Origin: a virus
Virus record (IMG/VR): IMGVR_UViG_3300035179_000003
Coordinates: 16,023 to 80,022 of that record
Strand: one strand, 5' to 3'
DNA: 64,000 bases
Of this stretch, positions 1,840 through 59,491 are shown one piece after another. Positions within the stretch are counted from its first letter, which is position 1. Each line of letters starts with the position of its first letter. The position numbers were made by a program, and so were the translations under genes. The notes under the pieces are model-generated. The model ran no database searches. It was not told where the DNA came from and saw only the letters and a list, made by a program, of their open reading frames with translations.

Positions 1840-3180
1840 TTATGTTAAATAAATTGAACCTGTATGAAATATAGTGGTAATTTTTTTTATTCCAAAATTT
1901 CCATCACTACAACAAACAGTTTTTCCATATGTTGAACACCCTTTAACAATATGTATTTTTCTTTTTATAAATACAAAATCACCAGGCTGTATTGAATATC
2001 TTTGTTTACGGATAGATGGCTTAAAACCCTTTCTATTCAACTGCAAAACCCTATTATTTCTATGTTTCTGCTTAAATATAATTGGAGCCACTTTTCTCTG
2101 TTCGTTTCCACCAGCTATTACAAAAGCATCGTTATAATGGCTTTTTTCTAACCTCAAAATATTTCTTTTAACAAAAGTCTCATTTCCATAAATTAACTTA
2201 CAATTTGATAAAATATTTCTGAATTTATTCCTTATTATACTCATAAATGTTGCATCTTTGTAAACCTTATTCTTTTTTAACACATCATACAACTTGTTCT
2301 TATGCAATTTCTTATGACATCTCTCATGCAACAAAGCCAAATTCTTCTCCCGGTCTATTCCACCGTTACTCCTCGATATAATGTGGTGAATATGAAAACT
2401 GTTACCTTTTGAAAACTCTTTACCGCATAACTGACATCTTCCCTGCTCCCGGAACATTAAAAAACTTCTCATGTTTTGATATTCAAACAACGATCCTTGT
2501 TGATATTGTATTCCTGCTATATCTGGATTCTCTATTTTCTGAATATCAAAATTACCTACTTCAATTACAACATTCTTAATTGGTAATAGTTTTTTTAGCT
2601 TGTTAATCAAGGTTATGTGGGTGTTGAATCTTCTCTGTGTTGAAGGTGGTAAATAACCAATAGCTGTTTTTCTATTGTTAAATCTTGGCTTTCTATACCA
2701 CAATCTACTCCTTCTACCCCTTCGATACATTCTCTTTTCTATAAGTCTCTCAGATGTCCTTTGATCCAAAAGAAGCGTTCCTGCTACTATTTCTTTTTTA
2801 TCAGTTATTGCTGAAAAACCTATATTCTTAAAACCGCTGTCTATTCCCAAAGAACAATCTTGAACCTGATTCTCACACTCAAAATTCAATTTAATAACAA
2901 ATGGATTCTGCTTTACAACATGCGCTTTTCCTCCTTCTAAAAGATGCCTTGCCTTTGTACTTGTGCATGGCATTAAAGGTTTTCCATTAATTGACAATAC
3001 AAACACAATGCTTTTAAAGCCGGGTGCTTGTTCCCGTTGATCCACTTCGAGATTGTTTAAAGTCCGTACTTTATCCTGTACACTGACTCTTTCAAGTCTG
3101 TTTAATACAGGATTTACAGAGCAAGGAACTAGTGGAGTATTCCTTGGTGTGTTCTTAAACTTTACTTTAAACTGCTGCAT
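1840..3180 (-). CDS. iscB: IscB RNA-guided endonuclease (true start possibly GTG 3006)
   Basis: PLMP motif, RuvC-I GIDSG, RRGRR bridge helix, RuvC-II IEVGNFD, HNH (HIHH..N..HERCH), RuvC-III SHYNDA. Confidence 0.92.
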   Translation of the reverse strand: MQQFKVKFKNTPRNTPLVPCSVNPVLNRLERVSVQDKVRTLNNLEVDQREQAPGFKSIVFVLSINGKPLMPCTSTKARHLLEGGKAHVVKQNPFVIKLNFECENQVQDCSLGIDSGFKNIGFSAITDKKEIVAGTLLLDQRTSERLIEKRMYRRGRRSRLWYRKPRFNNRKTAIGYLPPSTQRRFNTHITLINKLKKLLPIKNVVIEVGNFDIQKIENPDIAGIQYQQGSLFEYQNMRSFLMFREQGRCQLCGKEFSKGNSFHIHHIISRSNGGIDREKNLALLHERCHKKLHKNKLYDVLKKNKVYKDATFMSIIRNKFRNILSNCKLIYGNETFVKRNILRLEKSHYNDAFVIAGGNEQRKVAPIIFKQKHRNNRVLQLNRKGFKPSIRKQRYSIQPGDFVFIKRKIHIVKGCSTYGKTVCCSDGNFGIKKITTIFHTGSIYLT

Positions 3181-3264
3181 AGATAAACAACCTAAGCCCT
3201 CTAATCAACTCTTACGTTGAATCTCACGATTCAAGCTCCGGCCCTTGTGGCCGGAGTAGTTGAC
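3010..3264 (-). ncRNA. IscB omegaRNA scaffold; guide from the flank about 3265-3280 (GAACAGAACTTTCAGC)
   Basis: Located between the element end and the PLMP domain; 5' GTCAACTAC hairpin. Confidence 0.75.
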
Positions 3265-10211: not shown

Positions 10212-13200
10212 ATCATCACCGCGCTTCCGCCAAATTTAACATTATTAATGATATTACTTTTTCCTTTATCATAAGTATTATTTATATAAATAATTAAAAG
10301 ATTTTGGATGTCATCAAAATAAAATTCATATCTTCCGTCATTAAAGATCGAATTAAGCAATCCGCCGATATATTTATCCGTTTTAAATAATATAATCGAT
10401 CGTGTTCCCGAATCAAAATAGGCGGTTACCTGATATATGATCTTATTTGGCTTATCAGATAAATAAGAATAATCTTTTCTGAATTCTTTTAATCTAATTA
10501 CTACCTTCGATTCCCGACAAAATTCATATCTGTGTATTATTTCCAGATCCCTATAAACTTTTGTTCTGGTTTTAAAATTTTGATCAAAGACAGAAAATTT
10601 ATCCTGAAAAATAGTCTCTATGTCATCTGATTTTATAATCATGTTATTTACTAATAATTCATAGGGGCCGATATCGACAATTCCTGATATATAAATCCTT
10701 GGATTACCGATAATATCAAATTGTTCAGTAACATATGAGTTATCGCCGGCATCATATATAGGAGACGATTTTTTACATAGAAAAGACCGCTCCATAAGAT
10801 AAAGAACATCAAACAATCTTTCTGTTAATGTAACATATTTAAATTCAGGATCGATGCTTTCAAGAGAATCAATTGCTGTTTGTACAAAAACAAATGGATA
10901 ATCGCTAAAATTATAAGTCAAATTATTTTTAATAATATCATTATTATTAGGAGACGTCTGAAACTTTAACGTATCATTATAATAAGATATTATTTTGGTA
11001 TTAATACAGGTATTCGGGTCGTCTGATTTAAGAGATAACTGCATGGTATCTACATTTGAGGTATTCCGATATATTAATAATGAATTAATCGTTTCTATTA
11101 CGCCTTCTTCTATTATTGCATCATTATTTATCTGTACGATACAATTGACAAATCTGAGTTTATGAACATCATTAATAAGATAATCCTGCGAAACATCATA
11201 AGTACTGAAAATTTTTAAATTTTTAAATTCAACAATACTTTGATTTGAATCATTATCAATAAGAGGCCCTTGATACGCTAACGTACTTGGACCTCGTTTT
11301 ATTTCCCGTGGAAATGTCGCAATAGTAACGGTTCTGGACTCTCTATCATAAAGTGTAAACGTTCCAGCAAAAGTCTCGCCGCCCTGGGCGTATATGATTA
11401 AATTATCGACTAATTTTAAATTACCATTTTGGGATTCATGTTTCAGGAATTCATTTAATGAATATCGCGGATTCCCACTATAATATTCATTGGTATTAAA
11501 TTGAACCAATGGATTAACGTCGGTTAAAAAATTAGCTTCCGGATTCCCATCATCTCCTATTTTTCTTAAATATAAAATCATTGTTCCTGGAATTGTTCCG
11601 TTAAAAGCATTAACGTTAAAAAATATTTCTCCGACGTTTAAATCTCCGAAACCGGTAATATCAAGCGATTCAAAGGCTCCGATATCCCATTTAAGCAATT
11701 CCCTTAATGATCCGAAAATATCATCAACAAATAGGCGACTTATATCAGCCGCATTATCGACGGCATAAAAGTCTTCATATTCATCAAGATAATAATTCCC
11801 TTCCCATCTATTTAAAAATTTAATTTGTCGATCTTCTGATATAATATTGTTTCTAAAATAAAAATTTCCTTTTCTGTTTGAGTATTCGCATGCCACATTT
11901 CTTAATTCGGAATATTGGAATAAATTATTTCTAACATAGGCTGTTGTCGTATATTTATAATCGCTTTTATAAAAACGAAGGGCCTGTCTGCATCGTGAAA
12001 TGGTATTATTTAAAATAAAAACACTCGACCAGTCCCTTTCATCATAAATATTATTAGAATAATCGTTCATGTTTCCTGTATTGATCCCGTATCCGGAACA
12101 TTCATAAATTAAATTATTAATAATATAATTTTCTTTCGTGAAATCGATTCTTAATCCAATATTTTTAATAATATTATACCAAACGCATACTCCTCCTGAA
12201 TTAAGAATCGTAACGCCATTCATTATTTGCATTCCGGATATTTCCGAGCATTCACATCCGGTTAATATAATTGAATTTATTGCAGCGCCAATGCCAAGCA
12301 TACCATTATGTTTTTGTGATTTATTACATTCCGTTTGTTCATTTTTAGGAGCAAAAATTTGCACAAAATGATCGACGTCGGCATTTACGTTTGTTAATGA
12401 AAGATCGCTATTTAATATATTATCATCAAAATACACAATACCAAATCGTACTTTACCAACTATTAAATCTGAAAAGCGAAGAATAATATCGTTTGATAAA
12501 GAAATGTTTGGTATATAAATTTTACTAACCACTCCATGATTTCTATCGGTTAATGAATACCCATACATGTCGCATACGATCCAATGTCGAAGAGATAGTT
12601 TTCGTGTAAGAATACAACTTAATGGAAATGGATTATTATTATCGACTACTTCGCATCCAACGGCAAGTTTATTATTTACTTGATCTTCTGAAAAAATAAT
12701 TAAGCTATAATGCTCAAATGTTTTAACTTGGTAGGTTACTATACTACTTGATTTTTTTGTTTTAAGATCGGTATTATACGAGCTTATTCCTATATTTACA
12801 AGACATGGAATATATTCTAATGCGCCAATATCCCAAACACGATCTCGTATCCAGTTCGTCGCATCAATTGAAAATTTTTCAATTAATGAAAATCCCGTTC
12901 CACGCATTGATATACTATCATTTTTCGGACGATAATTACGAAGAGGGTATTCTGATTGATAATCAACATATTCAAATGGAACAAAACTCATGCATTTATT
13001 TCTATAACCAGCTGATGAATCACTGGAAAGGCAATATTGAATATTTTCATTATTAAAAAATGAACATCGGGTCGAAATGTTATTAATTAGATCATCAGTT
13101 GGTTTATTATAAAAACCAATAACATCACATTCATCAACAGTATTATTATAAACATAATCTTTTCCGGAACAGATTATTCCATATTGCCCCATTCCATATA

Positions 13201-26554: not shown

Positions 26555-27697
26555 ATGATACAAAAGAAATCCTACAAATTCCGCATTTATCCCAATAATG
26601 CCCAAAAAGTCTTACTATCTAAAACTTTCGGATGTGTTCGATATATCTGGAATCAATTTGTAGAATCATTCAATAAAAAAGAAAATCCTAAATCTACTAC
26701 TATTTTTAGAAAAGAAATAGAATGGTTAAAAGAAGTATCTTCTGCGGCTATTCAACAAAAAGAAATTGATTTTAAAGAATTTAAAAATCAGTTTTTCTCT
26801 AAAAAGAGAAAGAAAAAAATAGGAAAGCCTTCTTTTAAAAAGAAATTTGAAAAACAATCTTATCGATTACCTAATCAGAAATTTATCTTAAAAAATAATA
26901 AGATCAGACTTGAAAAGATAGGATGGATAAAAATCATTCTTGATCGAGAAATTCCTTCTTGTAAATTTTTATCAGTTACTATTTCAAAAGATAAAGTTGG
27001 AGATTATTATGCCTCAATCTTAGTTGAAGAGAATGTCCAAGAACTACCTAAAACAAATAAAATAGTAGGAATAGATTTAGGAATACAAGATCTTATTACT
27101 ACTTCAGATGGATTACAGATAAAAATGTTTGATGAAAGTGAGAACCAAGCTAAAATTAAGCATTTATCCGGACATCTATCAAGGAAGAAAATAGGATCTT
27201 TGAGATTTAATAAGACAAAGATTAAGATAGCTAAAATCTATCGTAAAATAGCAAGAAAGAGAGAATGGTTACATCATAATATTTCTTCTTATCTTGTAAA
27301 AAATTATGATAAGATTATAATAGAAGATCTTAATATTTCCGGAATGATGAAAAACCATAATTTAGCAGGATCTATTCAAAAACAGGGATGGTTTACTTTA
27401 GGAAAACAGATTGATTATAAGTCAAGATGGTATGGTAGAAAATTAACTAAGATAAATCGATTTTATCCTTCTTCTAAATTGTGTTCATTATGTGGTAGAA
27501 TAAAAAAAGATCTAAAATTGTCAGAAAGATTTTATATTTGTAAATGTGGAAACAATATTAATAGAGACTTAAATGCATCTCTAAATATTCTATCTTCAGG
27601 AGTTACTGAAGATTATCGATCATTGATGGAAAGTAAGACTTTTAATAATCAGGAGACATTAAAAGCAATTCCAGATGAAATGATTAACTTTTTATAA
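26555..27697 (+). CDS. tnpB: TnpB RNA-guided endonuclease (solo, AT-rich)
   Basis: YKFRIYP/FGCVRYIWN N-terminus; RuvC GIDLG, IEDL, NRDLNA; Zn finger CSLC..CKC. Confidence 0.92.
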   Translation: MIQKKSYKFRIYPNNAQKVLLSKTFGCVRYIWNQFVESFNKKENPKSTTIFRKEIEWLKEVSSAAIQQKEIDFKEFKNQFFSKKRKKKIGKPSFKKKFEKQSYRLPNQKFILKNNKIRLEKIGWIKIILDREIPSCKFLSVTISKDKVGDYYASILVEENVQELPKTNKIVGIDLGIQDLITTSDGLQIKMFDESENQAKIKHLSGHLSRKKIGSLRFNKTKIKIAKIYRKIARKREWLHHNISSYLVKNYDKIIIEDLNISGMMKNHNLAGSIQKQGWFTLGKQIDYKSRWYGRKLTKINRFYPSSKLCSLCGRIKKDLKLSERFYICKCGNNINRDLNASLNILSSGVTEDYRSLMESKTFNNQETLKAIPDEMINFL

Positions 27698-35769: not shown

Positions 35770-36015
35770 ATGGGACGTCAAATGGTCCACTTGGTAATGA
35801 CAATGCAGTCGGGGGATAATGGTCCAATTTTTTTAGATGTAATTGGGTGTTTTTCGACGCTTAAACGTGCAAAAGAAATTATTGACATGATCGAATCCGG
35901 GATGAAAATTCCTGGACTCGATTATGATACACTTCAACCATGTGATGGAGTAGCAATGGTTGGATCGTTTGAGATAAATAAAACCGTTAGGAAGACAAAA
36001 CATGAATTGGGATAA
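35770..36015 (+). CDS. Hypothetical protein
   Basis: 81-aa ORF. Confidence 0.45.
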   Translation: MGRQMVHLVMTMQSGDNGPIFLDVIGCFSTLKRAKEIIDMIESGMKIPGLDYDTLQPCDGVAMVGSFEINKTVRKTKHELG

Positions 36016-36928
36016 AATTAATAAAATAGTAAAAGAAGCAAAAAATACGATAGATGGAAAAATTAAAAATCATTTATGCGCTTTTGACAATTGCATTACC
36101 AGGACCAGGGGCAAGGATAAGTATTGTAAAAGACATAAAAAAAGCTTCAAATCAATAATATTTATATTATTAAGCGCCATGATATATGCGGAACAACCAA
36201 AATCCATAGGACCAACCGTTGAATTTATTTCTAAACGATTTCATATGCAGGAACCAAATTATCTTATATTCGGATTTCAAAAATCCGATTCCAGTATTAA
36301 ATATAAAAATCAGGTAAAAATTCTTATAAGTATGAAATTTGACATTGTCGATTGGAAACTGGATTCGATTAAGAAGTTTCAAATTACCTTTGGGTATCGC
36401 CAAAAAAGTTTCTGGAACGTATACGATGGCGCCGTAAGTCGTCCTATGTACGAGAATGATTATAGTCCATCATTCTATTGTTCTTATCAAACTATGGCTC
36501 GCGCGCTTCCTATAGCTTTCCTGGGCGGTTATGTCCATGAATCAAATGGTAATACCGATAAATTATCCAGAAGCTGGGATAGAATTTGTAGTAGCATGTC
36601 GCTTGGAAATTTAGAATCAAACCAGGCTTTTGCCCAACTTGATTTGTGGTATCCATGGGGAATGGAAGAAAATCCTGAAATATGGAAACATTATGGAATT
36701 GGGGAATTAACCATTTATTATAAACCATATAATTTCTTTTGCTGTTCAATAATTTGGAAAATAATTTCTGATAATTTTGAATTTGGATTTTATGGAAATC
36801 CGTTTTATCGGACGAAAACAATCAAACCGACTATTTATATTCAGTTATATATCGGCAGTGGTGAAAATATGTCGGATTATAAAGAAAGGCATACATGTTT
36901 ACGAATAGGAATGGCGACATTATTGTAG
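36002..36928 (+). CDS. pldA: Outer-membrane phospholipase A1 (OMPLA)-like protein with an extra N-terminal segment
   Basis: Active-site motif HESNG....SRSWDR; YRQKSFW, ENDYSP, Y.G.GE...DY; signal-like IIFILLSAMIYA. Confidence 0.8.
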   Translation: MNWDKINKIVKEAKNTIDGKIKNHLCAFDNCITRTRGKDKYCKRHKKSFKSIIFILLSAMIYAEQPKSIGPTVEFISKRFHMQEPNYLIFGFQKSDSSIKYKNQVKILISMKFDIVDWKLDSIKKFQITFGYRQKSFWNVYDGAVSRPMYENDYSPSFYCSYQTMARALPIAFLGGYVHESNGNTDKLSRSWDRICSSMSLGNLESNQAFAQLDLWYPWGMEENPEIWKHYGIGELTIYYKPYNFFCCSIIWKIISDNFEFGFYGNPFYRTKTIKPTIYIQLYIGSGENMSDYKERHTCLRIGMATLL

Positions 36929-39697: not shown

Positions 39698-39732
39698 AAA
39701 AAAGGGGATAAATCCTATCCCCCCTTTTTTTT
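39698..39732. terminator. Bidirectional intrinsic terminator
   Basis: A6-GGGGATA/TATCCCC-T8 between convergent genes. Confidence 0.8.
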
Positions 39733-41089
39733 AATTAATAAACATTTTTGTTAATAATCCATAAAATGTAGAAACCTTCTCAAGGTTTTTTTCAACATCC
39801 ATTGTATAAAATGCGGGTGCGCGCAATGCGCCTGAAGAATATTGTTGTGGAGATTTAACCCTGGCAACCATTCCAACATAATTTTCCGGATGAGCCAACA
39901 TGTCTTTTCGTTTTTCCTGAGTGAAACCTGTACCGACATTGCCAACAATTTTACCTTTTGGCGTCAAACTATACTGAAAACCACCGGCTTCATTCTTTTT
40001 TACTTGTGGATAAATATTCCGTATATAAACGTCATGGGTATCCCGGAATTTTTGCTTTCTTGGCGAACCGCCCGGTTTATTTAAATCCCACTCGACGACG
40101 CCTTCAACGGTATCCGGATGTTTTTGTTTCTGTATTTTATTAAGCAGATCCTGTTTGTCCTTTTGTGTTATGACAGTTTCAGCAACACGCATCGCAGGAA
40201 TCTTTAATTCTACCTGTTTCATCATTTTCAACTTATCGGCATAAGGCGCGCTCGAAACATCCTTGCCTTTAAATTTTACTATATCGAAAATATATGGTTT
40301 GAGCGGAGCTGTTTGTTTTTGTTTTTCCAAACTCTTATCAACATTTGAATTTAATATTCCACTGATTTGTTCTGCAGGAAGAGGGCCTTTGGACGTTGTT
40401 CCATATAAATCACCCCTCAATACCGTTCCGCTCAATGATTCAGGAACTTTTAAATCGCGTAAATGTGGAACCTGATTAGTATGTTCAATGGGTTTGCCGG
40501 TTTTTTTACTGGTACGATATGAGTAAATATCATTTTCTTTATTAGCATTTAATTGAAATATTGAATGACTGCCATCGACCTTTGGTTGTAAAACTTTATT
40601 TTCATCGGAAAAATCCAATGATTTTTTAACGGTTTGATATTTTGGCTTTGAAGTAACGGGATTTTTAATTACTGACGTCTTAATCATCAGCCAATGTTTA
40701 TCATCAGCGCCTTTTGGACGTATCATTGTAAAATAACCTTCAGGCAACTTCATTTTAATTTTATCATTCGTCGCTGAAATAACTTTTATTTTTTCATCAT
40801 ATACTTTTTTAACTGTCCCGGCGCCATATCCCTTTTTAATCTTTCCCTCAAAATCCATATAGCTTGATAAATGTGTAGGCTGTCGTATAGCAAGAGTTTT
40901 CTGTTTTTCACCAGGCAATGATCTGGTTACCCAACTATGTGCAATTCCTTTATCTTTTAAACGTATATCATAATGTTCGGTTTTTGCTTTGTGTTTTTGA
41001 ACAACAAGACGCGTGGTACCTTTTTGATTTATAGGATCAAATCTGGTACGGGAGGGGAGGCCTGGGGCATCATGTTTATTTTCATCCAT
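39731..41089 (-). CDS. LigD-type 3'-phosphoesterase fused to ATP-dependent DNA ligase
   Basis: PE motif VVQKH.A...HYDIRL...HSW...Y.DFEG.I..GYGAG.V; ligase KVDG, FDI, EGVV; OB fold VGTGF, LRAP. Confidence 0.8.
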   Translation of the reverse strand: MDENKHDAPGLPSRTRFDPINQKGTTRLVVQKHKAKTEHYDIRLKDKGIAHSWVTRSLPGEKQKTLAIRQPTHLSSYMDFEGKIKKGYGAGTVKKVYDEKIKVISATNDKIKMKLPEGYFTMIRPKGADDKHWLMIKTSVIKNPVTSKPKYQTVKKSLDFSDENKVLQPKVDGSHSIFQLNANKENDIYSYRTSKKTGKPIEHTNQVPHLRDLKVPESLSGTVLRGDLYGTTSKGPLPAEQISGILNSNVDKSLEKQKQTAPLKPYIFDIVKFKGKDVSSAPYADKLKMMKQVELKIPAMRVAETVITQKDKQDLLNKIQKQKHPDTVEGVVEWDLNKPGGSPRKQKFRDTHDVYIRNIYPQVKKNEAGGFQYSLTPKGKIVGNVGTGFTQEKRKDMLAHPENYVGMVARVKSPQQYSSGALRAPAFYTMDVEKNLEKVSTFYGLLTKMFIN

Positions 41090-51378: not shown

Positions 51379-52714
51379 TTGACATCCTCTGCCGGGGATT
51401 TATCCCCGCAGATTCCTGGGACTAATTATGCAAAGCACAAGTAGCACCAAGTTGGTTCACGCTTCGACAGAGTGTGCGTCTGGGAGCCGAAGCCCTCAGA
51501 CGTCTTACCCCTCCTCCACGCGCAGTCACCGAGTGTCCCTCGGCCATGTCTATGTTTTTTGCTGCGTTCTCGTCTCTGTCGTGATGTGCGCTGCATTTGG
51601 GGCAGTCCCATTCGCGGACATCCAATGGCAACAATTCGACGATATGGCCGCAAGTCGAACACAATTTACTGGACGGAAAAAACCTGTCAACAAGCTTTTC
51701 TTCCTTCCCGTACCGTTCACATTTATACTCAACCATCTGCCGAAAAGCCCCCATGCCGACATCGAGAATTACACGAGCGAAACAATGATTGCTCGACATG
51801 CCCCGCACGTTCAAATCCTCAATTCCGATCACGTCAAACTGTCGCACGAGATCGGTGGTAAACTTGTGAAGAGTGTTGGCACGACACTCTCCAACATGCT
51901 CATGTAGGCGAGCAATTTTCACGCGTTGCCTCTGCCATCGGCCACTACCATTTTTGCGCCGGGCAAGAACGCGCTGCAATCGGGCCAGCTTGGAGAGATT
52001 ACCACCAAGGTAGCGCGGGTTGGCAATGCGTTCACCGTTCGACAGGGTAGCAAGACGGCTTACCCCCAAGTCAACACCAACTGTCTTCCCGGTCTTCGGC
52101 AACTTCTCGACTTCTTCATCGAGGCAAAGAGTGACAAAGTACCTCCCGGACGGCTTCTTGATTATCGTAACCGTCGTGGGGGAGCTCTTGAACTCTCTAC
52201 TCCAACGAATATTAAGACGACCGAGGCCGGAAAGAACAAGGTTTTTATTTACGTCATCCCACTTAAAAGCGCTGATAGTATACTCGGCAGTCTGTTTATT
52301 TCTTTTCTTTTTAAACGAGGGGTAACGCCCACGCTTGGCCCAGAAATTGAGGAAGGCAGTTTGAAGATGGCGAAGCGCTTGCTGAATGGCGACGCTGGAA
52401 ACTTCGGACAGCCACTTTGTTTCTTCTTGTCTTTTAAGAACAGTAAGCATTTTGGATGTGTCGTAATAATTGATTCGCTTCTGTTCCGTTCGCCATGCTT
52501 CAGATCGCAAGCGAAGTGCCCAATTGTAGATGTAACGACAACAACCGAAGACGCGGGAAAGCTCTTGTGCTTGGGCGTCAGTGGGATAGAAGCGAAATCG
52601 GTATCTTGTTTTCACACTAATATTATACATTGTGTAAGTCGAAAAGTCAATACTTGTTTCCAGAAAGGGGCGGCAATTCATCCACAACAGTTAAAACCGT
52701 GTGGTTTTCTTGCT
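51379..52714 (-). mobile_element. IS605/IS1341-type TnpB-only element, GC-richer than its surroundings
   Basis: Left-end hairpin CCACACGGTTTTAACTGTTGTGG; right-end hairpin GGGGATAAATCCCC..TCAA; no tnpA. Confidence 0.88.
51422..52615 (-). CDS. tnpB: TnpB nuclease (probable leaderless GTG start 52615)
   Basis: GVDLG, IEDL and DRDENA RuvC residues intact; CSTC..CPKC; TTGACT-17-TATAAT promoter just upstream of the GTG. Confidence 0.93.
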   Translation of the reverse strand: MKTRYRFRFYPTDAQAQELSRVFGCCRYIYNWALRLRSEAWRTEQKRINYYDTSKMLTVLKRQEETKWLSEVSSVAIQQALRHLQTAFLNFWAKRGRYPSFKKKRNKQTAEYTISAFKWDDVNKNLVLSGLGRLNIRWSREFKSSPTTVTIIKKPSGRYFVTLCLDEEVEKLPKTGKTVGVDLGVSRLATLSNGERIANPRYLGGNLSKLARLQRVLARRKNGSGRWQRQRVKIARLHEHVGECRANTLHKFTTDLVRQFDVIGIEDLNVRGMSSNHCFARVILDVGMGAFRQMVEYKCERYGKEEKLVDRFFPSSKLCSTCGHIVELLPLDVREWDCPKCSAHHDRDENAAKNIDMAEGHSVTARGGGVRRLRASAPRRTLCRSVNQLGATCALHN

Positions 52715-52719
52715 GTATA

Positions 52720-53960
52720 ATTTATAACTACAAACCATGAAAAAGACAATAAAAAAATACAAACTCAAAACACGCTACGTGAGTTCGGCAAAGCTTTTAA
52801 TTAACAAAAAGAGAAATTTTTGGTTTCCTATATAGGAATTTTAAAACCACCCCCCCCTAATTACAAAAAAAATATTGAAAAAAACAAGAAATTTTTTTTT
52901 CTCCTCCCTCGAAAAGTAAAATTGTATATAGGAGGGTTATAATTATACTTTTATTTATATATATATATTATATATATTATATATATATTTTTATTATATA
53001 TATATAGATATAGATCTAACATAGCGCGAGCAAAAATTGAGCCAATCTGTAATTACTTGTTTTTATTTATTTTACAACAAAGGTTTAAAGTAATGGTTTA
53101 AGATTGGTTTTTAATATGCACATTATTGATAAATTTAATAAACTATTTTATGTGTTTCGCACTTGTTACAAAAAATCTGTCCAGCTTGACAAAATAGTGT
53201 ATGCATTTGTTACAACATTTTTTCATTTTGCAACAAAATGGGAAAAAAATTGACAAATAGGAGGCCTTTTTTGATAGTAAAAAGGGCAATTCTGTCCAGC
53301 TTGACAAAATAGTGTATGCATTTGTTACAGTGAAAAATGAAAAAGTGACTGCAACAAAATGCATACTTTTTTTTTAAAATGGACAGATTTTTTTTGACAC
53401 TTTTTATACTTAATCGTTTAAGGGAAAAATTTGCCTAGTAAAATGGCCATTCCCGGAAATCAATGTAAAAAATATATTTTAAGTTATTGATTTTTAAGGA
53501 CATAAATTAAGAAATGAAATTAAAAAAAAGTTGTCAAGTAATTCTATATCTTATTTAAAATCAATTTATTAGTATAGATATTTTGATTTTTTATAATCTA
53601 TTTTTTTAAAAAAAAAATCAATGACTTACAGATTTGGTTTTTTTCCGTTTTGTCAAAATTGACAACATGCTGTATGCATTCTGTTGCAGCCCGCTAAGCC
53701 ACACCAGTACAGGTGGGGTTCTGAATTTGCCACTATTATTCTGTAAAGATTTTTAAAAAAAAACCATTTTTGGTCATTAATGTGATATTTATCACATTAA
53801 TTCTTGTGTTGTAAAGTGAAAATGAAATTTTGATAAAAATGATTTTTATATTTCTATTATTATTAAAGACTTATGATTTATAATTAAAGTAATACTATAG
53901 AGGAGAATGGCTTTAATCGCTTAAATAATTTTTTTTAAAAATATTATATTGTTTTTTAAA
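52720..53960. other. Long AT-rich intergenic region, candidate replication origin
   Basis: (AT)n tract about 52955-53010, 39-bp direct repeats, gene orientation switch. Confidence 0.5.
53176..53329 (+). repeat. 39-bp exact direct repeat (53176-53214 and 53291-53329)
   Basis: TCTGTCCAGCTTGACAAAATAGTGTATGCATTTGTTACA occurs twice. Confidence 0.9.
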
Positions 53961-53965
53961 ATATT

Positions 53966-54448
53966 ATGTTTTATATTATATACATGGGTAAAGATTGTTT
54001 AATTATTAATTATAAATTTAATAATACTGAAATTAAGAATAAATTCAGGGAAGAATTAAAAAAAAGAAACCTGACTATGCAGGCGGCGTTTTCCATATTT
54101 ATCAATCACTTGACAGGAGGCACTAACTTGTTTGATGAAATTAAAATGAAACCAAAGAAAATCACGTATGGATATACACCATACGAGTTTTTTACAATTG
54201 AAAAAGTATACATTGATGATGAACCGAATGGCGAGTATCATATTAAAATTAATGACGGATCTTCCTCGAGAAATGCGTTAATATTTTTTCAGATGTACCT
54301 TGAAAATTTTCAGGTGGGTATGGTTGATGAAATACTTAATATAGAATATCCTATATATGCAAAAACATCAGATACCGATACTATTAAAAATGTCGATTCA
54401 GTTTTTACCGAACTAAACAAACAGTTAGAAGGTTTTAGAAAGAGGTAG
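53966..54448 (+). CDS. Hypothetical protein, possible N-terminal ribbon-helix-helix
   Basis: EIKNKFREELKKRNLTMQAAFS. Confidence 0.55.
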   Translation: MFYIIYMGKDCLIINYKFNNTEIKNKFREELKKRNLTMQAAFSIFINHLTGGTNLFDEIKMKPKKITYGYTPYEFFTIEKVYIDDEPNGEYHIKINDGSSSRNALIFFQMYLENFQVGMVDEILNIEYPIYAKTSDTDTIKNVDSVFTELNKQLEGFRKR

Positions 54449-54451
54449 TCC

Positions 54452-54874
54452 ATGGATATTGAAGTGACCGTTAGTGGAGAAGGTGTTGTTGGTGAACAAA
54501 GGGCAGAGGATCTTCCGGTTTCAACAAAACCTGGATTTGATCCTAATAAGACCCAGGACGTCAGATTTGACGCCGGGGATGAAGAGGGTGGTATTATAGC
54601 TCCTTCAAAACCAAATAGGTCTGTAGAGGGTTCTGTGATACTTACGGGCATTAAAGTGGCTTATTACGTCGGAGAAGAACGTGTAAGCAAGGATGTGAGG
54701 GATATATTCGATAGTGAAAATGATGCGAAAGCTGCAGTTGTGAATTCAAAAACATATTACGCGCAGACGACTCGCGGATTAAAACTGGTTACAATTATTT
54801 CGGGGGCTCCAAAGATATCGGTCGGAGACGTCGAAAGATGGATTTATATCGAGGGAGAGTGGAAGAAAACATAA
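54452..54874 (+). CDS. Hypothetical protein
   Basis: 140 aa, RBS GAGG. Confidence 0.65.
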   Translation: MDIEVTVSGEGVVGEQRAEDLPVSTKPGFDPNKTQDVRFDAGDEEGGIIAPSKPNRSVEGSVILTGIKVAYYVGEERVSKDVRDIFDSENDAKAAVVNSKTYYAQTTRGLKLVTIISGAPKISVGDVERWIYIEGEWKKT

Positions 54875-54897
54875 ATATTTTGTAGAAAGGCGGTTTT

Positions 54898-55200
54898 GTG
54901 CTTATTAATAAAATTCAAACAACAGGAATGGATTCAAAACCATCAGAAAATTTTCAATATCTATCTGATGAATTAGATAAAGAAATATCTAAATTATATT
55001 CAGAAATGGTAGATTTTGAAAAAGTTATTGTTTCGGTATTGCGCCCGTCATGTAAAAGCGAGAATTGTGAAAAAAATCCTGTAAATGATACACGTTCTCC
55101 TATGGAAAATTGGTTAGTAGAACAAATAAGAAGAATTAGAGAAATCTCTAATCATCTTTGTGATTATCGTGAAAGATGCTGCCTCACACAAATGAAATAA
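54898..55200 (+). CDS. Hypothetical protein
   Basis: 100 aa. Confidence 0.55.
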   Translation: MLINKIQTTGMDSKPSENFQYLSDELDKEISKLYSEMVDFEKVIVSVLRPSCKSENCEKNPVNDTRSPMENWLVEQIRRIREISNHLCDYRERCCLTQMK

Positions 55201-55557
55201 ATGGATAAGTATATTTTTATTTTTATTGTTCTATTTTTTATCTTTCTTTTAAGGTATTTGATTTATTTCGATAAATACAATAAATTAGATACCTTAAAAG
55301 ATAAGATAAATTATACCCATCATGACATTGATTCATTTACTATAATCATTAATATATTAAGTAATAAAAGAAAAAAAACATTTTTAGATCAACAATTATT
55401 TTATAGAACTTGTTTTTTATTAAGTAAGAGTTACTCTTATTATGATAGTATTGTTACTATATATAATTCAGAAATTGATATTACGTTTTATAAAAATACC
55501 CCATTCGGGGTTCATAAATCGTTATTACCGGAACGATATACTAAATTAGTCCAATAG
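55201..55557 (+). CDS. Hypothetical membrane-anchored protein
   Basis: N-terminal hydrophobic helix. Confidence 0.55.
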   Translation: MDKYIFIFIVLFFIFLLRYLIYFDKYNKLDTLKDKINYTHHDIDSFTIIINILSNKRKKTFLDQQLFYRTCFLLSKSYSYYDSIVTIYNSEIDITFYKNTPFGVHKSLLPERYTKLVQ

Positions 55558-55565
55558 GAATTATT

Positions 55566-55793
55566 ATGGTTGATTTTGAAAAAGAGTTTCCTCTTGTGAA
55601 TTTTGAACAAAAAAGTAAGAATGTTCTTTTAATTCTTGAAGATAGTTATGTTGACGGCGAACCTGTTATGGATTTGGAAAAGCTGGATGGAAAATATGAA
55701 TTTGGGATTCATAAAAAAATATTTAATGCTTTTTCTGATGAGTATGACATGGATATTTACAATAAAATTATTAAAATGCGCAGGAAAAAATGA
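55566..55793 (+). CDS. Hypothetical protein
   Basis: 75 aa. Confidence 0.55.
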   Translation: MVDFEKEFPLVNFEQKSKNVLLILEDSYVDGEPVMDLEKLDGKYEFGIHKKIFNAFSDEYDMDIYNKIIKMRRKK

Positions 55794-56218
55794 AAAAAGA
55801 ATTTTGTCCGTTGTGTTGTAGATATATAGATACAATCTGTAAATATTGCGGCACGCAAGTGTGGACCGATGATGATGGTAAACTATGTTTCGATAATCCC
55901 AAAACAATGCTTATTTTTGAGGATAATGATTTTGAATCGAAATATCTTTTATTGACCCCTCCGAATAAAATTGAAGTACCGCGAAATTTATCTTTTCGTA
56001 AAAAGGTTATTATTATAATGAATATTCTTGATATGAAAATATTTACTTTATCAACCCAGATACAATTTGGGCCATATGTTTATTATCCAAGAATAGTAGA
56101 AATAAATGGTAGAATAAGATATATGGTTACAGGGTTTAATCCTGAACTTCTTCATCAGGTAACATTTAAAAAATATTCATTTTATTACGGTGTTAAAAGA
56201 GTAATAAATCTGGTATAA
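55790..56218 (+). CDS. Hypothetical Zn-ribbon protein
   Basis: CPLC...CKYC. Confidence 0.55.
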   Translation: MKKEFCPLCCRYIDTICKYCGTQVWTDDDGKLCFDNPKTMLIFEDNDFESKYLLLTPPNKIEVPRNLSFRKKVIIIMNILDMKIFTLSTQIQFGPYVYYPRIVEINGRIRYMVTGFNPELLHQVTFKKYSFYYGVKRVINLV

Positions 56219-56232
56219 TAATTATGGAAGAA

Positions 56233-56457
56233 ATAGTTACTTTTATGGAGATAGACGATTGAAGAATTATACCACCAGCGTGCCCTTAGCCGGCTAAAGT
56301 CCGGCCTAACAACTAGTACCTGGCGTGGTTTTGAAGCCACAGAAATTAGGGTTAACAAATTTCATTAATACTGTAATATTGATGAGCAAATTAATCGGCG
56401 TTACAGCGCAATCGCTTTGGCAAGCGACAATCTGTTGAAGGCTATAAAGGTAACTAT
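56233..56457 (+). ncRNA. Putative stem-bracketed RNA directly behind a promoter
   Basis: ATAGTTACTTTTATGG / CTATAAAGGTAACTAT terminal stem; no ORF of 60 aa or more. Confidence 0.45.
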
Positions 56458-56593
56458 ATTTTTATAAACAATTTATTTACAAAGAGTTATATTATTTATC
56501 TAAAAAAAATATTAAGGAACTGATTACACTCTTTGTCTAGTTGTACAAAATTTTGCCAGCTTTGAATTTATAGTTCGGCTGGCTGGAGGCACA

Positions 56594-56779
56594 ATGAACT
56601 TTATTGGATTTTTCGCGGCAGCGTTTTTCTCGTCACTTTTTATTCATTTAGTGGTCGTTCAGCCTGCATGGGGCTTGATTGCTTGGTCGGGTTTTACTGG
56701 TATAGGCTTTGTCGTTTCAATAGTCAACGCCAGCCGAAAGAAAATTAAGGAAGCTGGCAAAACTTCGTACAACAAATAA
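56594..56779 (+). CDS. Cassette 1: small two-TM membrane protein
   Basis: RBS GGAGG; stop lies inside attC1. Confidence 0.65.
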   Translation: MNFIGFFAAAFFSSLFIHLVVVQPAWGLIAWSGFTGIGFVVSIVNASRKKIKEAGKTSYNK

Positions 56780-56839
56780 ATGGTGTTCGCTAACGCACAT
56801 TGCGAAGCGCAACGTCACCATTTATCGGACGTTGTACGA
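56765..56839 (+). repeat. attC-like site 1
   Basis: TCGTACAAC..ATAAATGGTG..CACCATTTAT..GTTGTACGA. Confidence 0.8.
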
Positions 56840-56870
56840 CCATATTTTGCTTTTTGGAGGTTATAGGCAC

Positions 56871-57080
56871 ATGGCTAAACAGGAACAGTTTTGTTACAAA
56901 TGTTATATGTCAAGGATGTGTGATGCGCAGTTTCCAAACGGTAGTCCGCCATGTGCAGCACTGGTTGAAGTGCAAAACACGGCGCACAACAAACAAAGTA
57001 CGCCATGTTCTCATATAGATGATGTTTGTCCTGAGTGTGGGGCACCTACTGTCAACGGGACATATTCACCGTATCGGTAG
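56871..57080 (+). CDS. Cassette 2: small Cys-rich protein reading into attC2
   Basis: RBS GGAGG; CYKC, CPEC. Confidence 0.55.
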   Translation: MAKQEQFCYKCYMSRMCDAQFPNGSPPCAALVEVQNTAHNKQSTPCSHIDDVCPECGAPTVNGTYSPYR

Positions 57081-57109
57081 GCACGGCGTACATTTGTAAC
57101 CCGTTGGTT
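56984..57109 (+). repeat. attC-like site 2
   Basis: GCACAAC..ACAAAGTACGCC..GGCGTACATTTGT..GTTGGTT, with an extrahelical base. Confidence 0.75.
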
Positions 57110-57135
57110 AACATAATTTTTTCTCTGGAGGTTAT

Positions 57136-57342
57136 ATGCGCGGCAAGAGATTAACAAAGTTACAACTGGAATATTTAGACAAAAATATTACTCATGGTGC
57201 ATATATTGCTTATCCAACAAATATTTTTCAATCTGACAATTATTTAAAGTGGCGAAGAGAACGCCGCGCAAACTTGTTGAAGAAAAAATTTCGTCAACCA
57301 ATACATATTAGAGGAAATTCCGCCTGTGCCTTTAAATTATAG
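57136..57342 (+). CDS. Cassette 3: small basic protein
   Basis: RBS GGAGG. Confidence 0.5.
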   Translation: MRGKRLTKLQLEYLDKNITHGAYIAYPTNIFQSDNYLKWRRERRANLLKKKFRQPIHIRGNSACAFKL

Positions 57343-57368
57343 CGCGCGCAGGAGAAAGAGAAAAAAAA

Positions 57369-57800
57369 ATGAAAACAATAAGCATACAGCAGCCTTGGGC
57401 ATGGGCCATAATTAACAAGGGGAAAGATATTGAAAATCGTGATTGGTACACAAATATTCGTGGAAAAGTATTGATCCATGCTGGCAAAAAAATAGACAAA
57501 GAAAGCTATTATTTTTTACACCATCAAATGGGATTGTTCATTCCAGAAGATAAAGAATTACAAACGGGTGGCATTATTGGAAGTGTTGAAATTGTAGATT
57601 GCGTCAGGTCAAGCACAAGCAAATGGTTTTTTGGAAAATTTGGATTTGTATTAAGAAATCCAATCGAATTACCATTTATGCCATATAGGGGACAATTAGG
57701 ATTTTTCGACGTTTCATACAAAGATGCGCGCGAGGAAGGGGAGGGCACAGGCTCCACATCCTCTAACACGCAAAGAGCAGAACAAAAAGAAGGTAGTTAA
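57369..57800 (+). CDS. ASCH-domain protein
   Basis: SIQQPWAWAI..GKDIENR.W....RG..LIHA; G.IIG.V...D; GQLGFF. Confidence 0.85.
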   Translation: MKTISIQQPWAWAIINKGKDIENRDWYTNIRGKVLIHAGKKIDKESYYFLHHQMGLFIPEDKELQTGGIIGSVEIVDCVRSSTSKWFFGKFGFVLRNPIELPFMPYRGQLGFFDVSYKDAREEGEGTGSTSSNTQRAEQKEGS

Positions 57801-57843
57801 AATATTATAGTTTTTTGCTCCGCTCTTTTGCGGGGCGTTATAC
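57761..57843 (+). repeat. attC-like site 3
   Basis: CTCTAAC..CGCAAAGAGC..GCTCTTTTGCG..GTTATAC. Confidence 0.75.
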
Positions 57844-57848
57844 GAAAT

Positions 57849-57986
57849 AAGAGGTTGCTTTTATGGTTATAGGCGGCAAACAGTACCGGGTACGGCGGGT
57901 AGGATTTGAACCCGAAGCCGATGGTTCGACTCCATCTGTGGTGGGGCACACTCCACTTGCCGCTTTATACTATAGAGGCAACCCTT
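57849..57986 (+). ncRNA. ORF-less cassette 4: stem-bracketed tRNA-like RNA
   Basis: About 28-bp terminal stem; perfect T-arm GATGG-TTCGACT-CCATC; ATTTGAA anticodon-like loop. Confidence 0.6.
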
Positions 57987-57992
57987 TAAATC

Positions 57993-58063
57993 GCACAACA
58001 AAGCAATGGTGGCGGAGGCCTAAATTTTGAGTACAAAACTTCACCATTGCTCGGACGTTGTAT
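57993..58063 (+). repeat. attC-like site 4
   Basis: GCACAAC..AGCAATGGTG..CACCATTGCT..GTTGTAT. Confidence 0.8.
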
Positions 58064-58067
58064 GTAA

Positions 58068-58279
58068 GTTTTCGCTCTTTGAATTTATAGGCAATGGCGG
58101 GGTTAGGGAACGGCAGCTTTGCCAATACGGGGGTAATTTGTGTTCAACCCGCTGCCTACATGGGAGTAACCTAACTACATTAATGTAGCGGAGTGTCTGG
58201 TCTGGGCCAGTACCAAATGATATTTGCCATGTATGGAACTAAGAACCGTCATTGCTTTTTAATATTGTGGAGCGAAAAC
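58068..58279 (+). ncRNA. ORF-less cassette 5: stem-bracketed structured RNA
   Basis: GTTTTCGCTC/GAGCGAAAAC and GCAATGGCGG/CCGTCATTGC terminal stems; internal GGCAG/CTGCC and TACATGG/CCATGTA. Confidence 0.55.
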
Positions 58280-58283
58280 CAAC

Positions 58284-58351
58284 ACACAACAGCCAAAGTA
58301 TGTTCGTTCCGCAAATTGTTTCACAACTTCATACTTTGCCACACGTTATAA
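58284..58351 (+). repeat. attC-like site 5
   Basis: ACACAAC..CAAAGTATG..CATACTTTG..GTTATAA. Confidence 0.8.
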
Positions 58352-58407
58352 GAAATAATATTTTGCGCAAAAGGTAAAGAAGCGCGCCATAAAGGTTCGG
58401 AGGAAAA

Positions 58408-58872
58408 ATGCAAAAAGAAATAAGACAAAAACCAAAATACAAACAGGTTGAAGACGGGTTTTCCGATGTCCTGGTTTATGTGACAAAAGATAACAAAGAG
58501 TTTAAAACAGAAAAAGAAGCAATGATCCACGAAGCGGATTTGGTATCGTTGGAAGATTTCAATAAAAAGTACCATCATTTTAAAGAAGGTTTTTCCGGAA
58601 GGGATTACGATGTCATTATTATTGACGAACTCACCAAAGAAAACAAAATAGAAATCGGAAGACGCTTTCGGCATATCAGTGAATCACAATTAAGGGTTGG
58701 CGTGAACTTAATATTTACCGACGATTCTGGCGACTATACGTATCAGTCGGTTGACCATCCAGAAGATTTGTTAAGAAATTTCGAAAACGAAATTGAGGAA
58801 ATTAAGAATACAAAATGTTACAGCTTACAACAAACGCTAACTGGTGCAGTAAGAAGTTGCAACTTCAGTTAG
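58408..58872 (+). CDS. Cassette 6: hypothetical protein
   Basis: RBS GGAGG; Y.TKD.KEF.TEKEA..HE motif. Confidence 0.65.
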   Translation: MQKEIRQKPKYKQVEDGFSDVLVYVTKDNKEFKTEKEAMIHEADLVSLEDFNKKYHHFKEGFSGRDYDVIIIDELTKENKIEIGRRFRHISESQLRVGVNLIFTDDSGDYTYQSVDHPEDLLRNFENEIEEIKNTKCYSLQQTLTGAVRSCNFS

Positions 58873-58886
58873 CTAATCCGTTATAA
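58824..58886 (+). repeat. attC-like site 6
   Basis: CTTACAAC..GCTAACTG..CAGTTAGC..GTTATAA. Confidence 0.8.
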
Positions 58887-58891
58887 GAAAT

Positions 58892-59023
58892 AGAAAGGGC
58901 TTTTATGGTAGTAGGCGGCTTAATTAATGAACAAAGTAGCAGTCTTGAACACCTGCCGATTTATGGCGTAAATGGTTCGAACCTCAAGATTACTCGCCGC
59001 TTTACACTATGGAGACCCTTTTT
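58892..59023 (+). ncRNA. ORF-less cassette 7: stem-bracketed tRNA-Ser-like RNA
   Basis: Terminal stem homologous to that of cassette 4; GCAG-T-CTTGAAC..CTGC, variable-arm-like GCC/GGC, GGTTCGAACC. Confidence 0.55.
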
Positions 59024-59028
59024 AAATT

Positions 59029-59124
59029 ACGCAACAAATAAAGGTTGTCATGCCACTAAGAATGGAGATTACCCATCATTATAGGAAAACGGCGGCACAG
59101 GCAACTATTTATCAAACGTTGTGC
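59029..59124 (+). repeat. attC-like site 7
   Basis: ACGCAAC..ATAAAGGTTGTC..GGCAACTATTTAT..GTTGTGC. Confidence 0.75.
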
Positions 59125-59157
59125 GCTATATTTTACTTTTTTATATTGGAGGAACTC

Positions 59158-59484
59158 ATGGAAAAAGATGAAGCATTGTCATATTTAAAAGAATGTGTGG
59201 ATAGTAAGGGTGGGAATATTTATAAAGAGGCTTTGCAAACTATTAGTATGGAAAATCGGATAAATAAAGGTGACATAGTTAAAATTAAAGGGTCTACGTC
59301 TTGGAGTGGTGAAAATTATTTAGTATCAAACATTTATCAAAACGTTGACGATCCTAATGATCGGCTGTTGTGTGTCAGTTGGGTTGAGCCCCATTCGCAT
59401 TCTCCACGATCTGCGCTGGCGGCAGAATATCAATTTATACACGCGCCAAGAGAAATTAAGAATGAAAAACAGGCCAGTGTATAA
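59158..59484 (+). CDS. Cassette 8: hypothetical protein
   Basis: RBS GGAGG before ATG 59158. Confidence 0.6.
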   Translation: MEKDEALSYLKECVDSKGGNIYKEALQTISMENRINKGDIVKIKGSTSWSGENYLVSNIYQNVDDPNDRLLCVSWVEPHSHSPRSALAAEYQFIHAPREIKNEKQASV

Positions 59485-59491
59485 TAACCAC

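Follow-up and report, generated by a model that had tools for sequence, protein, structure and literature searches.

A probable integron-like array of gene cassettes with non-canonical hairpin sites in a phage genome

We analyzed a 64,000-nucleotide stretch of viral DNA (hereafter, the window), which comprises bases 16023-80022 of the 80,022-bp IMG/VR virus record IMGVR_UViG_3300035179_000003, and found a region that is best read as a phage-borne, non-canonical integron-like array of gene cassettes, a reading to which we give a probability of about 0.62. The array consists of nine co-oriented cassettes at 56540-59246, two of which are fused and the last of which is truncated, with seven imperfect hairpins between them. 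A preliminary description of this DNA had noted seven palindromes; all of them were recovered by reading of the sequence, by an inverted-repeat scan and by folding, each with ..AAC on the left and GTT.. on the right. A cassette unit begins at the TT of a GTTR core, holds one small gene or structured RNA within a closing stem, and ends with a terminal hairpin. The same architecture was present in six other viral contigs (G001-G006), and sites of this family were found only inside arrays. Together with the window, these make seven contigs with a G+C content of 28-44%.

The cassettes are closed by stems of their own, in which the first 22-45 nt of a cassette pair with its own last 22-45 nt. A match between the 5' GTT core and the 3' inverse core of one and the same cassette had been noted, and it extended further than claimed, to 21-23 nt (stems I1, I3 and I4). 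In cassettes 1, 4 and 5, pairing resumed past an AT-rich internal loop, resulting in ~45 nt in total. The 5' arm of a cassette matched the reverse complement of its own 3' arm better than the arm of the next cassette in 22 of 24 cassettes from three arrays, and the two exceptions were inverse cores that had been mis-assigned. Among 38 confident cassettes of the seven contigs, positions 12-21 of the stem matched the own partner at 9.3 of 10 positions, compared with 3.0 of 10 for non-own partners, with all four bases being used. Positions 10-11 formed a near-invariant mismatch, in which AA of the 5' arm faces CA of the 3' arm. Furthermore, 11 cassette-closing repeats were detected in G001, all within arrays, compared with 1-2 in shuffled sequences. 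These private closing stems are a new structural element, and our literature searches found no description of them or of the site geometry described below.

The junction hairpins were 41-170 nt in length and imperfect, with feet of the form ..AAC-A and C-GTT... AAC was followed by A in 33 of 37 cassettes, and GTT was preceded by C in 32 of 38. These flank mismatches turn into G.T pairs on the bottom strand, where a site is ordered as R stem, G.T, 3-nt bulge, G.T and L stem. A subfamily of ~57-61-nt hairpins was common to the window (hairpins P1, P4 and P5), G001, G004, G005 and G006. As observed in the L stem of this subfamily, compensatory double changes had occurred at 7 of 10 pairs, and 98.6% of the cells were paired. 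Pairing of the R stem across the hairpin was confined to the inner five positions of the R box, as would be expected for an R' that is part of the following cassette. Seven sites were used to build a covariance model, which gave 41 matches at E<=1 on both strands of 649 kb; all of these were inside arrays, and nearly all were on the cassette-sense strand. The junctions therefore keep their structure through covariation and not through sequence.

The mismatches of the array had been described as A.C on the top strand, that is, wobble pairs on the bottom strand. At positions 4-19 of the closing stems, 21 A.C and 3 G.T mismatches were counted on the top strand. When folded with DNA parameters, the bottom strand was more stable in 21 of 28 junctions, and in 27 of 28 'circularised' constructs, in which the 3' arm and hairpin were joined to the own 5' arm (Wilcoxon p ~7e-6). 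In contrast, the bottom strand was more stable in only ~30% of random segments of flanking coding DNA, which is the opposite trend. The A.C excess and the folding energies relative to flanking DNA thus bear out both this description and the accompanying proposal that a bottom-strand fold is favored.

Gain or loss of whole cassettes was observed by comparison with a sibling metagenome contig, L220 (Ga0315293_10002524), which is 99-100% identical to the window over 52853-63342. In L220, hairpin P1 is separated from cassette 2, which begins at window position 56831, by a block of three additional cassettes (L220:4681-5685). Both ends of this block lie inside the shared TTGTACG of the R' core; the base in front of this sequence is G at the left end and A at the right end, and the window has G, indicating that the exchange took place within the 8-nt G|TTGTACG, at the 3' foot of the hairpin. 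The comparison of cassette content among relatives, which had been suggested as a check, thus revealed a single event, in which the window and L220 differ by three whole cassettes at G|TTGTACG. Hairpin P1 remains with cassette 1 in both genomes despite the insertion after it, and ORFs (open reading frames) run into their downstream hairpins, both of which indicate that each hairpin goes with the gene on its upstream side; several ORFs encode a Zn-ribbon or coiled-coil tail inside the palindrome. The mirror-image layout, with a hairpin in front of its gene, was ruled out by these same two observations. The second difference between the two sequences lies outside the junctions, at 59246/59247, where a deletion has removed 1588 bp from the window. 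The deleted part (L220:8102-9689) comprises the remainder of cassette 8, including the hairpin, plus another two cassettes and three ORFs, so that cassette 8 has lost its hairpin relative to the sibling contig. When the additional and the deleted cassettes are included, and the fused cassette 3 is counted as two, the ancestral array would have held at least 14 cassettes.

The seven array-bearing contigs share almost no proteins with one another. All-against-all BLASTP of their ORFs found no family common to all, the widest being a radical SAM/SPASM enzyme in 4 of 7, and the genes flanking the arrays (uracil-DNA glycosylase (UDG), a helicase C-terminus, a glycosyltransferase and a phosphoesterase) are mutually unrelated. 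Similarity between arrays was limited to the junction hairpins (32-143 nt, 73-97% identity), with dissimilar cargo. Among these contigs, G001 is a complete genome (213 kb, terminal repeats, 100% complete) with arrays at ~3.8-12.8 kb, and G005 is 170 kb long; arrays were likewise present in G002, G003, G004 and G006. One genome for each of 185,579 bacterial and archaeal species was searched with two site patterns and one cassette-protein profile, and nothing genuine was found. Cultured phages contained no array, and a single cargo gene has homologues among them, in Streptococcus and Yersinia phages. When viral contigs were scanned for exact 14-17-mers, most of the matches were due to chance.

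Next, recombinases were searched for. The tyrosine recombinase profile PF00589 had no match in any of the seven contigs, including the 80-kb record and the complete G001. The statement that no integrase lies nearby therefore holds for the whole 80-kb record, and no integron integrase adjoined the array in any of the seven contigs. Profiles PF00239 (resolvase) and RVT_1 (reverse transcriptase) had no match in the five largest contigs, and Y1_Tnp was found in one of five large contigs, namely G004, being absent from the complete G001. The G004 gene (G004:49318-49668, minus strand, locus L276) encodes an IS200-type Y1 transposase, directly follows the last cassette of the array, and has its own TTGACA-N17-TATATT promoter. 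Since no enzyme was found to be encoded beside the array or in the seven contigs, a host factor or an unrecognised phage protein would be responsible. A tyrosine recombinase serving the array in trans, as had been proposed, is pure conjecture.

The closest known systems are integrons and the clusters of attC sites lacking an integrase (CALINs), which have already been published in virulent phages, where IntI1 recombined five of six tested sites (Qi, Rajabal, Ghaly, Tetu and Gillings 2023, PMC9892861); that work does not extend to the present geometry or to closing stems. As in CALINs and attC arrays, co-oriented single-gene cassettes are separated by variable imperfect palindromes with AAC-A / C-GTT feet. 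The attC cores (..AAC, GTT.. and own 5'/3' core matching, that is, matching of a cassette's own R' and R'') are present in the array sites, together with the A/C flanks of genuine attC. Cassette-sized polymorphism at G|TT, a bottom-strand fold, the lack of a nearby integrase (as in CALINs) and a DNA methyltransferase cassette in G004 are further likenesses to integrons. The array could accordingly be a canonical integron fragment, in which true attC sites are recombined by a host IntI and the cassettes come from the bacterial integron pool, but we consider this improbable because of the geometry of the sites. A complete integron is carried by Vibrio phage Va_90-11-286_p16 (MK672802; PMC9892861). 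In its attC sites, the match between own R' and R'' ends after 8-11 nt, the unpaired spacer is symmetric with ~5 nt on each side, and the L'' arm has extra bases; the attC sites used in the IntI1 assay of the same study (aadA7, TJE1) have the same canonical layout. In contrast, the spacer of the array family is asymmetric, being longer on the R' side in 19 of 19 short hairpins (mostly 4-5 nt compared with 1-2 nt on the R'' side), and no bulge interrupts the first 10 bp of the L stem, which lacks extrahelical bases. Nothing in the genuine Vibrio array corresponds to the 22-45-nt closing stems, whose AA/CA mismatch at positions 10-11 is conserved, and our site model matched 0 of 15 or more Vibrio attC sites. 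Unlike integrons, many cassettes also contain a TTATAG(G) motif ~30 nt inside, and the arrays were found in phages and not in the bacterial genomes tested, since neither the site patterns nor the cassette proteins were detected across the 185,579 species genomes. Thus, the core and logic of attC are shared but its geometry is not, indicating that the family is non-canonical.

A different explanation dispenses with a dedicated recombinase altogether and is the main rival to a cassette array. The junctions would then be regulatory or structural, and modules would be exchanged by general, microhomology-mediated recombination or replication slippage between GTTGTAC-type repeats, with the stems promoting exchange only by juxtaposing the repeats, as in the promoter-early stem-loop (PeSL) elements of T4-type phages. 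PeSL-flanked genes are exchanged by homologous recombination and form mini-circles (PMC2839356, PMC4122927), and the resemblance is evident: small accessory genes lie in a hyperplastic phage region, are flanked by repeated stem-loops, differ between relatives by whole modules, and have been proposed to be excised as mini-circles. The negative recombinase search is also in line with this rival, as are a 7-nt direct repeat flanking the observed indel and the nature of the second indel of the pair (59246/59247), an ordinary deletion outside the junctions. However, a PeSL is a short GC stem-loop terminator joined to a sigma-70-type promoter, conserved in sequence and recombined by homology, whereas the array hairpins are long, conserved in structure, strand-biased and devoid of T runs. 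We counted 15 promoter-like sites where 12.8 were expected and 3 terminator-like sites where 3.1 were expected, and none was at a junction. This absence of an excess of sigma-70-type promoters or intrinsic terminators indicates that the junctions are not PeSLs, and their sequence is conserved over only ~8-16 nt, which is far shorter than in a PeSL. Moreover, slippage accounts for loss, but not for differing cargo in one chassis across seven unrelated phages, and the structure is kept through covariation while the sequence varies. We therefore regard recombinase-free exchange as unlikely, although it is the alternative to be taken most seriously.

Two further alternatives appear less probable. 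The stems and hairpins might be RNA structures that serve a polycistronic or antisense transcript as stalks for processing or as stems bound by proteins, the array being a static operon of independently processed units. RNA helices typically covary in this manner, with one strand rich in wobble-compatible pairs, several cassettes carry structured RNA, and the lineage encodes Ro60 and an RNA-repair nucleotidyltransferase. Nevertheless, the strand that allows wobble pairs runs antisense to all ORFs as well as to the T-arm-like element of cassette 4, the mismatches on the sense strand are A.C, no Rfam match was obtained, and siblings that differ by exact cassettes must have changed at the DNA level, which makes this account quite improbable. 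Mobilization by an HUH Y1 transposase (IS200/IS605 TnpA or a relative associated with repetitive extragenic palindromes (REPs)), acting in trans on single-stranded cassettes whose hairpins are subterminal recognition structures, is slightly more remote still. Like IS200/IS605 elements, their palindrome-associated derivatives, and REPs with their REP-associated tyrosine transposases (RAYTs), the array has putative single-strand hairpin substrates, strand-biased folding, precise junctions without target duplications, and possible mobilization in trans; the phage of the window contains IscB and two TnpB but no TnpA, so that a TnpA must act in trans, and in G004 the transposase gene lies directly after the array. 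Against this stands the presence of Y1_Tnp in only one of the five large contigs, with most array contigs, including the complete G001, having no Y1 transposase. TnpA hairpins are conserved in sequence and occur twice per element, with tetranucleotide cleavage sites, whereas here the stems covary freely with one hairpin per cassette, and the cores resemble attC and not the TTAC/TCAA sites of the IS608 type. The array was also compared with Xer-dependent elements, such as the dif modules of Acinetobacter plasmids and the folded single-stranded attP of CTX-type phages, in which modules are likewise bordered by inverted sites, elements that encode no recombinase use a host tyrosine recombinase in trans and, for CTX, a folded single strand has a central mismatch; unlike Xer/dif sites, the arms of the array are not conserved in sequence. 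Inspection by eye revealed no dif-like core (28 bp, 11-6-11), and no Xer-like gene encoded by the phages was found in the seven contigs. Ends of DDE-type transposons were ruled out by reasoning only, as ~12 nt per arm are conserved and the remainder covaries.

Several observations weigh against the favored reading of a non-canonical cassette array. The tested families of recombinase are missing from the contigs searched (PF00589, PF00239 and RVT_1 absent; Y1_Tnp in one only), and, as the record is 44% complete, the remainder of the phage genome could still encode an enzyme. Cassette-precise polymorphism was observed just once, and slippage between 7-nt direct repeats brought together by the stems explains it equally well. 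A recurrent in-frame peptide (..T-A/V/S-H/Y-N..) is encoded at some of the A.C positions, and coding constraint may therefore add to the A.C bias. The sites also differ from attC in geometry, by the 3-nt R'-side bulge and the lack of extrahelical L bases.

If cassettes do move in this array, we infer that strand exchange in the 3' foot of a hairpin, either at G|TT or directly following it, would add and remove them, with the exact cleavage point lying within G|TTGTACG. The substrate would most likely be the folded bottom strand of single-stranded DNA. In a circular intermediate, the arms of the excised cassette would lengthen the R stem to 22-45 bp; alternatively, the closing stem may bring neighboring or flanking sites together in cis. 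The enzyme would be a host factor or an unrecognised phage protein. More tentatively, the arrays may represent a second kind of integron in phages, namely a pool of hairpin-bounded cassettes exchanged among unrelated phages, with non-attC geometry, closing stems and a non-IntI enzyme (a Xer-like host recombinase or an unrecognised phage protein); we hold this possible, though somewhat short of an even chance. Under such movement, large phages would own a modular gene-capture system for small accessory genes and RNAs, whose cargo would probably serve host takeover and anti-defence functions. The system would be common to unrelated phage lineages and invisible to integron-finding software, and structure-specific cassette recombination would need no canonical attC geometry and perhaps no IntI. 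In practice, the sites delimit accessory modules in phage genomes.

The array is preceded by a leader and all cassettes are on the plus strand. The first core at 56540 had been reported to have no left arm; however, a degenerate leader hairpin (56479-56539, plus strand) with 8-bp arms ACAAAGAG / CTCTTTGT precedes it and ends in TTTGTCTA directly 5' of this first GTT core. The leader junction TTTGTNTA|GTTG is distinct and conserved, and it opens the arrays in the window, in G001 (twice) and in G005. This fits the earlier suggestion of an attI-like entry, and the leader is a candidate attI-like first site. Cassette 1 (56540-56830) has a 5' arm at 56540-56585, an ORF at 56594-56779 (61 aa, hydrophobic), a 3' arm at 56729-56773 and hairpin P1 (56774-56830). 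Its 23-nt arms (I1) are 91% complementary, and it matched the covariance model with an E value of 6e-16. Cassette 2 (56831-57102) contains an ORF at 56871-57080 (69 aa, Cys-rich, Zn-ribbon type), which crosses the inverse core ending at 56990 and continues into hairpin P2 (56991-57102); the protein is carried by 17 contigs on record. Cassette 3 had been described as a single unit but really consists of two cassettes fused without a hairpin, with the junction near 57302-57307. The first of these, 3a (57103-57306), has an ORF at 57136-57342 (68 aa), a 3' arm at 57281-57301 and 21-nt arms (I3), its hairpin being lost. The second, 3b (57307-57836), starts with ATTAGAGGAAAT and has an ASCH-domain ORF at 57369-57800 (phrog_3193), a 3' arm at 57743-57767, hairpin P3 (57768-57836) and a weak covariance-model match (E 0.2).

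Cassettes 4, 5 and 7 carry structured inserts in place of an ORF, enclosed by closing stems of 43-45 nt. Cassette 4 (57837-58056) lacks an ORF and has a structured RNA-like insert with a T-arm-like element, closing arms of ~43 nt and hairpin P4 (58000-58056; E 8e-18), and the T-arm-like stem-loop is perfect (GATGG TTCGACT CCATC). Cassette 5 (58057-58344) has no convincing ORF; its closing arms of ~45 nt pair 58057-58101 with 58246-58290 (I4), followed by hairpin P5 (58291-58344; E 5e-12). Cassette 6 (58345-58879) encodes a 154-aa protein of unknown function (ORF 58408-58872), with its inverse core ending at 58831 and hairpin P6 at 58832-58879. Cassette 7 (58880-59117) has no ORF and shares the chassis of cassette 4, with hairpin P7 at 59036-59117 and a model match at E 0.015. 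The truncated cassette 8 (59118-59246) contributes its first 30 codons to a fusion with the downstream gene, forming the fusion ORF 59158-59484. The ORF-less chassis with a structured insert was also present in G001 and the sibling contig, and the ORFs of the cassettes have strong GGAGG ribosome-binding sites. tRNA genes were ruled out, as ARAGORN found none. Known RNA families were likewise excluded; the sole Rfam match was an unrelated HEARO RNA at 3036-3264, and the array remained blank even at E<=5.

Short motifs recurred within the cassettes. In each of the seven contigs, many cassettes contain the conserved sequence AWTTATAG(G) ~30 nt downstream of the GTT core (in the window, for example, at 56567-56574, 56861-56867, 57870-57876 and 58084-58090), where it directly precedes the ribosome-binding site or RNA insert and occupies the AT-rich internal loop of the closing stem. 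This motif does not fit a sigma-70 promoter; it may be a promoter specific to the phage or may belong to the recombination structure. In many hairpins of several contigs, AACTTC is conserved directly 5' of the L' stem (for example, 58039-58044, 58326-58331 and 58862-58867 in the window), and the P1/P4 subfamily has besides two small inner stem-loops, often with GAGTAC. Homologous ORFs of ~68 aa (..KEAAKEKLIKLG..) were observed directly upstream of the first cassette at L263:14472-14678 (minus strand) and L275:2115-2315 (plus strand), in the unrelated contigs G004 and G006; they have no Pfam match and may be an array regulator or helper. The methyltransferase cassette of the G004 array is MT-A70-like, with a DPPW motif.

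In the window, the array sits within a plus-strand block of small genes. CheckV estimated the record as 44% complete, corresponding to a genome of roughly 180 kb, and the label of a jumbo-type phage is therefore approximate, as its basis is an 80-kb record of that estimated completeness. The gene content of the record includes large structural genes, an IscB element with HEARO RNA, two TnpB genes, a ligase and a phospholipase A1. The phospholipase A1 is of the outer-membrane type, which points to a Gram-negative host, and the ligase is an ATP-dependent DNA ligase fused to a LigD 3'-phosphoesterase domain (36002-36928 and 39731-41089, respectively). The HEARO (IscB omega) RNA is on the minus strand at the position given above, with an IscB-sized ORF at 1840-3180 (minus strand), and the TnpB genes are at 26555-27697 (plus strand) and 51422-52687 (minus strand). 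No Y1 transposase was found anywhere in the 80-kb record, indicating that the IscB and both TnpB elements must be mobilised in trans.

Downstream of the array, an RlaP-type RNA-repair nucleotidyltransferase (59557-60333) is 69% identical to G001:16757-17524, although G001 is otherwise unrelated, which points to a putative recent horizontal transfer. As a partner of the array, this gene was ruled out because its relatives with 58% and 49% identity have no arrays; it is merely a neighbor. A Ro60-type gene follows in the window (61463-62011), from which 780 bp have been lost and only the vWA part is kept (61526-62011, PF25045), whereas L220:11912-12693 encodes a full Ro60-type protein, the N-terminal part of which was judged by eye to be a TROVE domain. 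The Ro60 gene lies near the RlaP nucleotidyltransferase and near the ORF-less cassettes with their long terminal stems and T-arm-like element, which suggests that these cassettes are Y-RNA-like partners of Ro60. Just 3' of the truncated cassette 8, a 51-bp duplicate of part of a 1599-aa structural gene was observed (59492-59542, compared with 11594-11644). This copy predates the 1588-bp deletion, because it is also present in sibling contigs (L220:9936-9986).

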